A stretch of 64,000 nucleotides of DNA, taken from positions 3,328,001 through 3,392,000 of the forward strand of contig OY761611.1 in NCBI GenBank assembly GCA_963664875.1, given 5' to 3'. This document shows, in pieces, positions 21,001 through 24,000 of this stretch. This DNA is from Candidatus Kapaibacterium sp. GTDB lineage: Bacteria > Bacteroidota > Ignavibacteria > Kapaibacteriales > UBA2268. Made by a program: the position numbers. Position 1 is the first letter of the stretch; the number at the start of each line of letters is the position of its first letter.

Positions 21001-24000
21001 ATAAAAAGGGATATTATCGTTGCGAAAAAACTGTAAGACAATGTATTCGATATTGAACCCGTATTGGTCAACAGAACTGTAAAAAGCTTCGTCTCATGAA
21101 TTAGAACAATGGAGTATGCTACATTGTTCCGGTAAGTAAAGATTGCTTAATTACTAATGAAGAGGCTGTCTCATAAATCCAAAATTGGGTACAAAATTAT
21201 GCTGTGGCATTTTTCCACCCCGTCATGCTTCGCATGCCACCCCTCAAGAGGGGAATTTTTAACTTCTTTACATAAAAAAGAGTTAAAGTATTTAATAGTG
21301 TATTTAATTGGGGCTGTCCCATAAGTCTGAGTTTTGTCATACTCTTTAGTAAAAGTAGAGGAAAAACAAACGTTATATTTTCTTCTACCGCAAGCTAAAG
21401 CATGCGGTTGCAATGAGTTACACAAGTGCAACCGACTGCTTCAGCTGTCGGTAAAACTTACAAACATCAAGAATATGTTGCAAATTTTGACTTATGAGAC
21501 AGCCTCTGCCATTAGGGCGGGGTAGTCGTTCTTGTTTAAATCATTCTTTTATACTTATAAGACAGTCTCCTATTATAGAATTTAACAACTAAGCTGAAAT
21601 TTTCTAACTAGATTTTTGGGATGAACTAATAGTTTGCATTTTCACATAAAAAAACCCGGCAATGGCATACCGGGTTCAGGAGGTCTGTACTAATTACTTA
21701 AGATCAGGTAATATCTATTTCCAAAATATTAGCCTCAAACTTAAAACAAAGAAAAATCGCAGGACAATCTATATTGAGGATTGTTTGGAGCACCTAATTC
21801 TGTTTTTTTTAATCTCAAATTATCCTTGCAATCTCTTCGTTTATACTAATACACTCCAAAGAGCAAAAAAGTTACAAATATTTTTTAGGATACCTATGGA
21901 TTCCATTCCAAAAATTGAAGATGCCATTGCCGGATTGCAAGGCGAAATGATTTCAAAGCTAATCATAACAGTTGCTATTGTCATTATTTTAAGCATACTT
22001 AGGACGCTTGTGCTGCGTTTGATACAAAAGTATGCAAAGAATCCACGCATTAGATTTAGTGCAAAAAAAATAACACTTAACGTAACTTTTATCTTCGGTT
22101 TTTTTTGGATACTAAGTGTATGGATAAACGAATTTCAGTCACTTTTTACTTTCCTTGGTCTGATAAGTGCAGGTGTGGCAGTCGCATTGAAAGATCCGAT
22201 AGTAAATATTTTTGGTTGGGTATTCCTGATTTGGCGTCATCCGTTCAAAGTGGGGGACAGGATACAGATTGGAGAGCAAGCAGGCGACATAGTTGATATT
22301 AGACTGTTTCAGTTTTCAATGATGGAGATAGGTAACTGGGTAAACGCTGACCAATACACAGGCAGAATAATAAATGTTCCTAATTCTCATATTTTTTCTA
22401 TGCAGCATAGCCTTTATTCTACTGACTTGGAGATGCTTTGGGACGAATTGGATATAACAGTATCTTTCGAGAGCAACCACAAAAAAGCAAAAGCACTTTT
22501 AGAAGATATTGTGTATGATTATAATAAAATATTCACTAACAAAATGAATACAGATTTAGCAAATGAAGATGGGAAATTTGCTTTAGATTCTATTCGCTTC
22601 AATCCGGGAGTGTATACCGAATTGAAGCCAAGCGGTATAAATTTTGTGGTCAGATATTTTTTCCCTTATAAAGAAAGAAGAAAAGCTAAACACGAAATAG
22701 TAGAACAAATTATAGAAGCCTTCGGCAAGACAACAGATATAGAATTTGCTTATCCAACGACGAGATTTTACCAGAGGCAGGAACAGAGCGAAAAAACTAA
22801 ATTCAATACCGATTAGTTATTAATATTTTGATATATTCATATATCCTGCTCGCTGTGTCTGTCATTTTCTTTATATTGTGATAGTATATTATTTTTAATA
22901 TTTAGGCTGAAAACATGAAATTATCCAAGCTGTATGTTTTAATGTTCATTGTTGCCGCTTTCTATAATGCTAATGGGCAGGAGTTCCTCGAAGGCAGAAT
23001 TTCGGGTAACTTCCAATTTGAAGCTCAAACAAGCAAGGAAGACGAAAAAATCAATGCAGACAAAGTAAGGGAGGGAGTCCTTTCTTCCGGTTTTCTTAAT
23101 CTGAATTATAACAGTAGTTCTTTCGATGTCGGTATGCGCTATGAGTCTTATCTCAATCCTATTCTTGGTATTGATTCACGCTACAAGGGCAATGGTATTC
23201 CATATCGCTATGTTACTTATCATTCTGAAGATATTGAAGTAACAGCGGGTGATTTTTACGAACAGTTTGGTTCCGGTATGATATTCCGCTCCTACGAAGA
23301 ACGTTCGCTCGGAATAGATAACGCTATGGACGGTATCAGAGTAAAATTTAGCCCACTTGCAGGTGTGCGAATTACAGGTCTTGTGGGTAAGCAAAGGTAT
23401 TACTGGGAAAAAGGTAACGGCATTGTAAGAGGTGCTGATTTTGGCTTTTCAGCAGCAGAGATTTTGGGAGATATGTGGAGCAGCGATTATAATCTTGACT
23501 TAGGAGCGAGCTTTATTTCGCGTTTCCAGGAAGATGATGATGTGTTTTACTATTTACCTGAAAATGTATTTGCGTGGGCGGCAAGAGCAAATCTCTCCGG
23601 CTCATGGTTTACTTTGAATACTGAATATGCAAAAAAATATAATGATCCTAACGCCAATAACAATAAATCTTACTCTCAGGGGCAGGGGATTATCATTTCT
23701 TCAAGCGTTTTTGGTGATGGTATAGGCTTCTCGGCTGAAGTTCACCATATAGATAATATGGATTTCAGAAGCCAACGCGAAGCTCAAAAAACTGACTTGA
23801 TGCTTTCTTATATACCTGCTATTACCAGACAGCATACTTATAGATTACCTTCTATGTACCCGTATGCTACTAAACTAAACGGCGAATTCGGTATGCAGTT
23901 TGACTTTACTTATAAGTTTAAAAGAGGCACATTCTTAGGCGGAGAATATGGCACAACACTTCAGATAAATTACTCACAGGTCAATTCCATAGACACCACA

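Follow-up and report, generated by a model that had tools for sequence, protein, structure and literature searches.

A two-hairpin palindromic repeat with C-rich boxes in the intergenic DNA of a Kapaibacterium genome

Results

The window, a stretch of 64,000 nucleotides from contig OY761611.1 of a Candidatus Kapaibacterium genome, carries at 21214-21256, 178 nt downstream of a co-directional gene, one copy of a repeat that is 45 bases long and has two hairpins. The copy begins with TCCACCCCG (21214-21222), runs into a 5-bp hairpin and ends in CCACCCCTCAAGAGGGGAAT (21237-21256); its 20-mer occurs once in the window and was matched in none of 100 shuffles. Read on the plus strand, the 5' box TCCACCCCG contains the core CCACCCC, which returns as a direct repeat in the 3' box (21237-21243), and this 5' box is unchanged to the letter in other genera, families and phyla. 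Between the boxes stands hairpin 1, which with its tags spans 21221-21239 and consists of CG, a T.C mismatch, the 5-bp stem CATGC/GCATG (21224-21228 with 21232-21236), the loop TTC and a final CCA; the stem is variable between copies, with paired changes. The 3' box overlaps the 5' arm of hairpin 2, the palindrome CCCCTC AA GAGGGG (21240-21253). In a variant from another genome (G024) the 3' and 5' boxes have changed together, CCACCTCC standing at both places. The unit closes with AAT and a run of T (21254-21260). Upstream, the centroid fold of the plus strand contains an optional further hairpin (hp0, 21204-21218), in which GTGG (21204-21207) pairs with the CCAC that starts the 5' box (21215-21218); the same pairing, as GGTGGA...TCCACC, lies upstream of the copies in genome G004 and of copies labelled Patescibacteria.

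A blastn search of the intergenic region against the genome places the window copy in a larger repeat unit (the 'type A' context, 21154-21294, plus strand), which is common to the copies at contig positions 1552-1689, 2193425, 1215262, 3175397, 3395442 and 3010547, with 73-91% identity over 81-182 nt. Synteny is broken at the copy's own orthologous site, where the matches of congeners begin about 17 nt before the MscS start codon; this comparison shows only that the copy is not conserved at that site in congeners.

Genome-wide, TCCACCCCG occurs 47 times against about 4.9 occurrences expected from composition, and CTCAAGAGGGGAA 31 times against 0.05. Requiring both anchors gave 44 candidates, one of which (contig 279290) was dropped because it lies inside an ORF and has no real 3' motif. 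The survey's finding of a dispersed intergenic repeat stands with 43 copies in place of about 46, and 41 of these are intergenic on a crude ORF map covering 86% of the genome. A 111-codon ORF located within a repeat pair overlaps the remaining two; we treat it as presumably spurious, which leaves no copy in a credible gene of this genome. Inverted pairs are frequent, as had been reported: 26 of the 43 copies form 13 head-to-head doublets. Their 5' boxes, however, are not about 80 nt apart, as first stated; they lie 98-101 nt apart, except in one pair at 61. One more pair is tail-to-tail, 90 nt apart, and head-to-tail pairs are absent from this genome. The spacer of the head-to-head pairs is conserved and asymmetric, and can be aligned between pairs. 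As to the described location between type IX secretion (T9SS) cargo genes, a Por_Secre_tail domain was found in seven flanking genes; the other neighbours are housekeeping genes, which pairs adjoin as well.

Such pairs could be invertible switches: a site-specific recombinase would use the two head-to-head copies as inverted repeats, turn round the spacer of about 100 nt, which would bear a promoter, and thereby phase-vary T9SS cargo genes. The conserved, asymmetric spacer of the 13 pairs would suit this reading, as would the fact that it faces paralogous cargo genes in both orientations, the fact that one hairpin-1 variant adjoins either the B or the C side of the spacer, depending on the pair, and a TAAATTTG-like box on one spacer side that may resemble the Bacteroidota -7 promoter element. 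We nevertheless consider it quite improbable: 17 of the 43 copies lie outside head-to-head pairs, pairs also sit beside housekeeping genes, and tail-to-tail, tandem and in-frame copies occur in other genomes. Of 21 sequencing runs listed, with no holder on record as RNA, four were compared with a 10-kb T9SS array as Logan contigs; no strand-changing joint is among the joints listed, and such contigs, which cannot show rare variants, are uninformative on inversion or mobility. The contigs break at the repeats, and the listed joints, whose sides measure about 22-53 nt, resemble artefacts of a repeat graph.

The paired substitutions described for the first stem hold when all 26 short copies (18 distinct rows, not hand-picked) are used. 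Helix 1 has changes on both sides in four of its six pairs (17 cells), its covariation score is reached by 0 of 500 shuffles, and 85.9% of helix cells are paired against 37.5-54.3% with the partners slid; in helix 2 of the same copies both-side changes were never seen. Across 70 distinct hairpin-1 sequences from eight genomes, the longest perfect stem averages 4.81 bp against 2.67 in 200 shuffles (maximum 2.87), measuring 5 bp in 25 hairpins, 6 bp in 13 and 4 bp in 9, and the commonest loops listed are TTC (23), TAC (10) and TGC (6). Stems are swapped wholesale between copies, with lengths of 3-8 bp (mode 5) and a loop mostly of 3 nt. The 135 simple hairpins contain 763 Watson-Crick pairs, 3 G.T and 14 A.C, so that wobble is nearly absent, and 70 of them carry a T.C mismatch at the second stem position. 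Fold z-scores are -2.6 for DNA on either strand, and -0.94 and -0.59 for RNA. Genes show no orientation bias towards the element, the upstream gene being co-oriented with it in 21 of 43 copies and the downstream gene in 26. Because wobble pairs are few, the DNA fold scores stand out and orientation bias is absent, hairpin pairing is kept at the level of DNA and not of RNA. The paired stem changes on which the survey's finding had based selection for the hairpin itself are real, and selection is one reading of them; self-templated correction of the palindrome in DNA would give the same stem picture without selection on a folded RNA.

These data bear directly on the possibility that the element works in RNA, with hairpin 2 and a T-rich tail ending transcription or protecting mRNA 3' ends and hairpin 1 adding stability, roles that have been proposed for classical REPs. 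In the window copy, a consensus scan flags hairpin 2 with the following AATTTTT as terminator-like (two sites in the region against 0.4 expected). T-rich tails occur in 19 of the 43 copies, and in three T9SS arrays a copy begins 4 nt past a stop codon. Yet where a copy abuts a stop codon it runs antisense to the gene, a T-rich tail combined with a sense position downstream of a gene is limited to 6 of 43 copies, the RNA fold is unremarkable, and in other genomes genes read through this element in frame. Rfam has no family for it: no match overlaps the window copy at E up to 10, in agreement with the earlier report, and three pairs gave none at E up to 1. The lack of wobble and of orientation bias likewise argues against a role in RNA, which we regard as unlikely for the family. 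Intrinsic termination is not a family property, with six of 43 copies correctly placed and T-rich, and the window copy itself fits it; some copies may act as terminators, because 19 of 43 have T-rich tails and the window copy follows a co-directional gene.

Hairpin 2 is itself a target. As the survey had noted for the loop of the second hairpin, four of the seven copies of an insertion sequence (IS) lie inside it, at loci other than that of the window copy; the 10-bp duplication CCTCAAGAGG spans the whole hairpin top, and 10-bp duplications are present at five of the seven IS copies. The transposase matches the Pfam domains DDE_Tnp_1_assoc and DDE_Tnp_1 (1.6e-20 and 1.3e-09) and the IS ends read CAGGG...CCCTG. 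The ISAs1 family has CAGGG ends and duplications of 8-10 bp, and the IS fits it in transposase domains, ends and duplication. Hairpin 2 is the favoured landing site of this ISAs1-like IS. Being a near-perfect, intergenic palindrome of 14 bp that is invariant within this genome, it might also be a duplex-DNA site, bound either by a dimeric regulator, as its operator, or by a nucleoid protein, with the rest of the element as passenger. This would leave unexplained a hairpin 1 that varies and stays paired, the duplicated box, the copies in ORFs of unrelated genes in other phyla and the alternative forms of hairpin 2, and no candidate protein was found; we think it very improbable.

Beyond this genome, a 19-mer of the element (up to one mismatch) is present in 9 of 41 genomes of an order-level sample, and a 16-mer in 1 of a further 400 genomes drawn from the phylum; a reversed-pattern control gave 0 in both searches. 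The full two-box pattern is found in at least 115 stretches of database records, and the matches listed carry the labels Patescibacteria, Bacillota, Thermotogaceae, Simkania, Hyphomicrobiales, Nitrospirota, Chloroflexota, Ignavibacteriae and Flavobacterium, the labels of metagenome-assembled records being taken as written and possibly including binning errors. The element measures 33-77 bp, with an optional 30-nt insert, and elsewhere occurs in a long form and in forms with another hairpin 2 in the same position. Copies are arranged tail-to-tail in G004 and in tandem in G021 and G030. Modules have turned over at one orthologous spacer compared between four congeners. Copies have also stayed at an orthologous spacer in species that share about 72% DNA identity in their ordinary genes, an observation that slow vertical inheritance explains no less well than active transposition would. 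This phylum-crossing family, its in-frame copies within genes of other genomes, and its long form and hairpin-2 variants are new relative to the survey's finding. Phages were rejected as the usual carrier (one stretch in 2.9 million viral contigs), as was a CRISPR-like reading of four tandem G030 copies with a 69-nt period, whose 'spacers' are alike. The sequence GGAGGTGGA upstream of Patescibacteria-labelled copies, considered as a ribosome-binding site, aligns instead as a degenerate arm of an inverted second unit.

Among the two-box matches listed there are 147 copies, of which 31 fall within open frames of 250 codons or more (24 in sense and 7 in antisense), and 21 of 23 carrier ORFs match Pfam families, including RrnaAD (three), PheT domains (two), TGT, MurB, TatD, RNB and GARS. 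The in-frame hosts are ordinary genes (KsgA, PheT, TGT, MurB, RNase R) and secretion-tail domains; in G024, nine secretion-tail (CTD) domains and one Type_ISP_C protein hold the element in frame. A filled site can be compared with empty ones in the KsgA of G041, which has 27 additional codons where most of 27 aligned relatives have about 4-5, and where the 81-nt form has 15-nt terminal inverted repeats. Because the closest empty-site proteins are only 51-70% identical, neither a target-site duplication nor an exact insertion boundary can be read at KsgA. Its frequent in-frame presence inside ordinary genes of distant bacteria makes the element look like selfish DNA rather than a gene-control signal. 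A literature search with motif and peptide strings returned unrelated primers or shRNA loops, and a word search for in-frame palindromic elements in Patescibacteria/CPR returned nothing on this element.

The label 'REP-like' (repetitive extragenic palindrome) is apt for dispersed intergenic palindromes in inverted pairs and is not supported in the strict sense of a RAYT-associated repeat, no Y1_Tnp gene inspected being flanked by the element. The four Y1_Tnp genes of this genome sit among other repeats, with neither CCACCCC nor CTCAAGAGGGG within 700 nt on either side. For seven Y1_Tnp genes in three other carrier genomes, the element is absent from the five longest flanking inverted repeats of each, and other palindromes flank five of the seven. 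One carrier genome, of uncertain completeness, has seven copies and no Y1_Tnp match. A DUF559 endonuclease lies beside copies in three loci and was rejected as the candidate enzyme, this genome with its 43 copies having one partial match of 24.7 bits. No IS with ends matching the element was seen, the ends of the ISAs1-like IS being different, and neither were two identical copies in clearly unrelated flanks, which would prove a recent jump.

Discussion

The window copy is one of a family of miniature, GC-rich palindromes, probably of the REP and Rickettsia palindromic element (RPE) kind, which we propose to be non-autonomous selfish DNA. Two C-rich boxes (CCACCCC) flank a short hairpin whose stem sequence is free and in which pairing, a T-N-C triloop and a T.C mismatch at the foot (head CGTC, tail CCA) are kept, and the second box doubles as the 5' arm of a second, fixed palindrome. 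In our model the element would be no oriented RNA signal; hairpins that form in the DNA would serve to copy or keep it, and it would settle at sites where harm is small. Such sites would be intergenic in this genome, where head-to-head dimers around a conserved spacer of about 100 nt prevail, and elsewhere would also include permissive protein loops, where it would be read through in frame. The palindrome of hairpin 2 is in turn the favoured target of the ISAs1-like IS. We infer that the element is mobile and is moved by some trans-acting enzyme, which was not found here.

Selfishness alone does not explain the exact conservation of the boxes across phyla. The boxes are exact across phyla yet absent from nearly all close relatives, and in reduced genomes the element lies inside essential genes that it leaves intact. 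It is possible, and we put this forward tentatively, that the same element, with boxes identical to the letter, spreads horizontally among very distant phyla and colonises essential genes in frame. The hosts concerned include the Kapaibacterium lineage and Patescibacteria with genomes of 0.6-0.7 Mb, among others. Such spread, if true, would require either a universal replication or repair enzyme acting on a G-N-A/T-N-C hairpin between duplicated boxes, or an unrecognised trans-acting enzyme that the hosts share. For REP-class repeats, regarded until now as bound to their lineages, DNA would then be moving in a new way. Such repeats are usually viewed as lineage-specific passengers tied to a domesticated transposase; this family has no such gene alongside.

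If this pattern of exact boxes, patchy presence, missing transposase and copies inside essential genes holds, the family would offer a concrete sequence with which to seek the mobilising activity of REPs that lack a transposase (CGTC type). It would also mark horizontal contact of Patescibacteria with other bacteria, and its in-frame copies would show, as a natural catalogue, which loops of conserved proteins and of the T9SS secretion tail tolerate insertions. For the annotation of this genome, the element accounts for many 'empty' intergenic stretches and predicts IS landing sites.

Comparison with known repeat systems

The closest described relatives are the CGTC-tagged REPs (Di Nocera, De Gregorio, Rocco 2013, BMC Genomics 14:522; PMC3733652). 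In that paper these have an unpaired head of CGTC type and a 3-nt CCA tail, a stem of 8-9 bp that starts with A-T pairs, and a loop of 4-5 nt; head-to-head dimers predominate, tail-to-tail ones are rare and head-to-tail ones negligible, with conserved spacers of 20-100 bp; intragenic copies are in frame, no transposase is adjacent, and the families are scattered over several phyla, including Bacteroidetes, Chlorobi and Thermotogae. The same text equates RPE-4 and RPE-6 with CGTC REPs and calls the Neisseria dRS3 repeat a CGTC-1 REP (PMC3733652). In our element the head is CGTC in 157, CGCC in 55, CGGC in 23 and GTAG in 0 of 255 copies, and the tail is CCA in 149 of 241. Measured against that description, the element is alike in its head and CCA tail, its head-to-head dimers with conserved spacers, its intragenic copies, its want of a transposase and its scatter over several phyla. 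It differs in a stem of 3-8 bp (mode 5) with a loop mostly of 3 nt, in a head of CGCC or CGGC in about a third of copies, and in having its hairpin between two CCACCCC boxes, after which come a second palindrome and, optionally, an insert of 30 nt. The element is set apart from the CGTC-REP families by text description, and it may overlap one of them.

Like REP/REPIN-RAYT systems, the element consists of short intergenic palindromes, commonly comes as inverted doublets, persists for long at orthologous sites and depends on hairpins at the level of DNA; unlike them, it has neither a GTAG head nor a RAYT gene that it flanks. RPEs are known as 'selfish DNA in protein-coding genes', and RPE-1 measures about 100-150 bp. 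Going by their description, the element resembles them in lying in frame in unrelated, often essential genes, where it is read through as a short peptide in tolerant loops, and differs in its size of 33-77 bp and its presence in distant phyla, RPE-1 being confined to Rickettsia. This RPE-like behaviour, in-frame insertion at sites empty in orthologues, occurs in other genomes and not in the one studied here.

The dRS3 repeat reads ATTCCC N8 GGGAAT. On the other strand, hairpin 2 and its tail read ATTCCC CTCTTGAG GGG..., which we take to match dRS3 in arm and spacing. Both repeats are landing sites for a mobile element; here one arm only matches fully in this genome, and the mobile element is an ISAs1-like DDE IS. 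IS1397 and ISKpn1 target enterobacterial palindromic units, and elements of the IS110 family target REPs. Like them, the IS in this genome prefers the top of a repeated palindrome, here as an ISAs1-like element whose 10-bp duplication takes in the whole of that top.

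Results

The palindromic element at positions 21214-21256 of the window (forward strand) begins with TCCACCCCG, continues with a 5-bp stem (CATGC/GCATG) enclosing TTC, and ends with CCACCCCTCAAGAGGGGAAT, within which lies the second hairpin, CCCCT(C)/(G)AGGGG. Its neighbors are a methylase-like gene and an MscS-type channel gene, and it is embedded in a larger repeat unit (about 140 nt) that recurs at six other loci. A 20-mer of the element occurs once in the window and in none of 100 shuffles; across the 3.83-Mb genome (36% G+C), composition predicts about 4.9 occurrences of the 9-mer TCCACCCCG and 0.05 of the 13-mer CTCAAGAGGGGAA, and the observed counts are 47 and 31. 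Defining a copy by the presence of both anchors gave 44 candidates, and the one at contig 279290, within an ORF and lacking a real 3' motif, was excluded. On a crude ORF map covering 86% of the genome, 41 of the 43 copies kept are intergenic, and the other two overlap one 111-codon ORF that lies entirely inside a repeat pair and that we assume to be spurious. The survey's finding of a dispersed intergenic family is upheld, with its count of about 46 becoming 43 by the two-anchor definition. Short copies span 33-44 nt, and long copies (62-77 nt) carry about 30 extra nucleotides between CCACCC and CTCAAGAGGGG. Two exact TCCACCCCG matches outside the family, at contig 1759397 and 2966019, fall in apparent tRNA-Met genes; the complement of the 5' box presumably corresponds to 9 nt near the 5' end of the initiator tRNA.

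The first hairpin varies by paired substitution. In all 26 short copies (18 distinct rows, no hand-picking), helix 1 changes on both sides at four of six pairs (17 cells), with a covariation score of 0.209 against a shuffle mean of 0.114, reached by 0 of 500 shuffles, and with 85.9% of cells paired versus 37.5-54.3% with partners slid; two-sided changes are absent from helix 2. The covariation reported earlier from selected copies is thus reproduced on an unpicked set. A set of 70 distinct hairpin-1 sequences, drawn from eight genomes, has a longest perfect stem averaging 4.81, versus 2.67 in 200 shuffles (maximum 2.87); the commonest loops are TTC (23), TAC (10) and TGC (6), and 51 of the hairpins close with a C-G pair. 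On the opposite strand these loops read G-N-A closed by C-G, a very stable DNA mini-hairpin loop. A census of 135 simple hairpins, among 163 distinct sequences, counted 763 Watson-Crick pairs, 3 G.T and 14 A.C, along with 96 T.C mismatches, 70 of them at the second stem position. With G.T and A.C so few beside the Watson-Crick pairs and most T.C mismatches at one position, the stem of hairpin 1 is a palindrome at the DNA level that retains a single mismatch, rather than a helix of RNA that drifts by way of wobble pairs. Fold z-scores agree with this reading (-2.58 and -2.55 for the two strands as DNA, -0.94 and -0.59 as RNA). That the element is a binding site recognized as duplex seems to us very improbable.

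A role in RNA, as a terminator or stabiliser, seems to us unlikely. A scan flagged hairpin 2 followed by AATTTTT in the window as terminator-like. However, a T-rich tail follows only 19 of the 43 copies, and only six are both T-rich and sense-downstream of a gene. In 21 copies the gene upstream is transcribed in the direction of the element, and in 26 the gene downstream is; the copies that begin 4 nt past T9SS stop codons are antisense to those genes.

Many copies are paired: 13 head-to-head pairs account for 26 copies, with 5' boxes 98-101 nt apart (61 in one pair), and there is one tail-to-tail pair. The pair spacer is conserved and asymmetric, with a 'B' side and a 'C/D' side; it occurs in either orientation relative to paralogous genes, and an identical hairpin-1 variant can be joined to either side. 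Head-to-head pairs might act as an invertible switch, an explanation we consider improbable. The survey had placed inverted pairs between T9SS cargo genes; the pairs are confirmed, and Por_Secre_tail, a T9SS sorting domain, occurs in seven of the genes flanking copies, but copies also neighbor metK/ahcY, tRNA synthetase genes, creD and similar genes. The 'B' flank, GGTTCTTATCC, resembles a T-loop.

Hairpin 2 is also a target for a 1,192-bp insertion sequence (IS) with ends CAGGG...CCCTG. The genome holds seven copies, 99.6-100% identical, and in each the transposase (DDE_Tnp_1_assoc and DDE_Tnp_1) is split between two overlapping frames of 188 and 189 codons (for example positions 2555-3647 of the extracted locus L020), reflecting either programmed frameshifting or recent spread of a broken element. 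The IS fits the ISAs1 family, given the ends and duplication size that we take to typify that family. As claimed earlier, four of the seven copies lie in hairpin 2, all with a 10-bp duplication, CCTCAAGAGG. The other three comprise two insertions into a different repeat (CTGCTATAAG) and one at a further site (CCTGAATGGG). For two of the hairpin-2 insertions (contig 2078472-2079655 and 2173060-2174243), the duplication reads CCTCAAGAGG (AA) at one end and CCTCTTGAGG (TT) at the other, so the 2-nt palindrome center is flipped. The copy at 2173060 has no 5' box or hairpin 1, and has a 30-bp direct repeat on both sides. The copies at 1389238 and 1390969, 1.7 kb apart, share a repeated sequence (...ATAGAAATACCTGCTATAAGGGGTTTAAAC) that may be a CRISPR-type repeat.

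The metK-ahcY spacer allows copies to be compared at an orthologous site. It holds two short copies in the window's genome. A second genome (G004) has one long copy together with a hairpin-2 palindrome that is bare and flipped; a third (G001) has three copies, of which the first is long and has nearly the same hairpin 1; and a fourth (G003) has a single long copy with another hairpin 1. Copies are thus retained at the site even as individual modules come, go and change orientation. The window copy upstream of the MscS gene was not found in four congeners, where synteny is broken.

A 19-mer (at most one mismatch) occurs in 9 of 41 genomes of an order-level sample (reversed control, 0); the nine comprise four of five genomes from the genus along with members of three further genera in the family and of two more families; all carriers have the same architecture with different stems. 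Among 400 other genomes drawn evenly from the phylum, a 16-mer occurs in one, of the same order. The exact two-box pattern occurs in at least 115 stretches of a species-level genome collection. Taking record labels as written, the matches listed include Candidatus Kapaibacterium (the window's lineage), Ignavibacteriae, Flavobacterium and Chitinophagaceae; many Patescibacteria (Nomurabacteria, Paceibacteria, Saccharibacteria, Gracilibacteria); two Bacillota MAGs, a Thermotogaceae MAG and Simkania; and Hyphomicrobiales, Nitrospirota, Desulfobulbaceae and Chloroflexota. From these loci we reached five carrier genomes, labelled as Patescibacteria lineages, which are 0.6-0.7 Mb with 3-10 copies each. 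In the Patescibacteria-labelled form of the element, two units meet head to head, the left one degenerate, and the terminal inverted repeats are 15 nt long. At one locus (L038, genome G030), four copies follow one another in tandem every 69 nt, separated by spacers that resemble each other. It remains strange that the box letters are identical across phyla and that nearly all close relatives lack the element.

Copies also lie within genes. In one carrier genome (G024), nine T9SS C-terminal domains have the element 27 codons before the stop, translated ...STPSSLRDATPQEGN... with variants; the frame is kept whether the element is 42, 44 or 48 nt long, Por_Secre_tail matches span the elements, and one Type_ISP_C protein also carries the element. 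The wider domain family there (92 matches) holds GC-rich palindromes of many kinds at the same two loops, including relatives of the element with another hairpin 2. In loci L257-L286 these palindromes are all in frame, and a paralogue without inserts has 63 residues, versus 73-93 in 28 others listed. In one variant both boxes read CCACCTCC, and therefore the two boxes co-vary as a direct repeat. The cross-phylum loci contain 147 copies, of which 31 fall within open frames 250 codons or longer (24 in sense and 7 in antisense orientation). Pfam families were found in 21 of 23 carrier ORFs: RrnaAD (three), PheT domains (two), TGT, MurB, TatD, RNB (antisense copy), GARS, AIRS, PIF1 and others. One carrier's KsgA (G041) has 27 extra codons versus about 4-5 in most of 27 aligned relatives; two relatives have a different palindrome in the same loop.

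Discussion

We propose that the element is probably a non-autonomous selfish palindrome. Hairpins formed in DNA would allow it to be kept and copied, it would be tolerated between genes and in protein loops, and it would serve as a landing pad for the IS. We infer both the mobility step and its enzyme. The element motif is absent within 700 nt of all four Y1_Tnp (RAYT-type transposase) genes of the window's genome. Three of these (contig 3603757, 3453009 and 2425528) lie in arrays of other hairpin repeats (GAGGCTGAAAGCCTC, GCCCATGGCAACGCCATGGGT and similar), which also occur just outside several element copies. In three small carrier genomes, the longest inverted repeats flanking seven Y1_Tnp genes do not contain the element, and for five of the seven are other palindromes; one carrier genome with seven copies, its completeness not established, has no Y1_Tnp match. 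The two-box pattern occurs in only one of 2.9 million viral contigs. DUF559 was considered as a candidate enzyme and rejected: it lies near copies in three loci, but is nearly absent from the window's genome.

A separate MITE-like repeat of 197 nt, with terminal inverted repeats (GAGGCTGTCTCATAAGTC...), occupies window positions 21310-21506 and has about 12 further copies at 82-99% identity. Since its internal palindrome (CCGCAAGCTAAAGCATGCGG...), which accounts for a weak Rfam mir-6302 match at 21384-21455, also flanks the fourth Y1_Tnp gene (contig 2893482), the two may form a true transposase-repeat pair.

Searches with the motif, its peptide and words found nothing relevant in the literature, and the parts of two later REP papers available to us do not mention the element. 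The survey's description of it as REP-like holds for its CGTC head (157 of 255 copies), CCA tail (149 of 241; copies not deduplicated in either count) and dimers, but not for a partner gene, as no Y1_Tnp gene inspected is flanked by it. The sections available of Di Nocera et al. 2013 (PMC3733652) describe CGTC-tagged REPs with an unpaired CGTC head, a stem of 8-9 bp, a loop of 4-5 nt and a CCA tail, occurring in five phyla as head-to-head dimers with conserved spacers and no transposase, with intragenic copies that include Rickettsia RPE-4 and RPE-6. Compared with that text description, our element is similar in head, tail, dimer habit, intragenic copies and missing transposase, yet differs in stem and loop sizes and has a duplicated box, a second palindrome and a long insert in addition.
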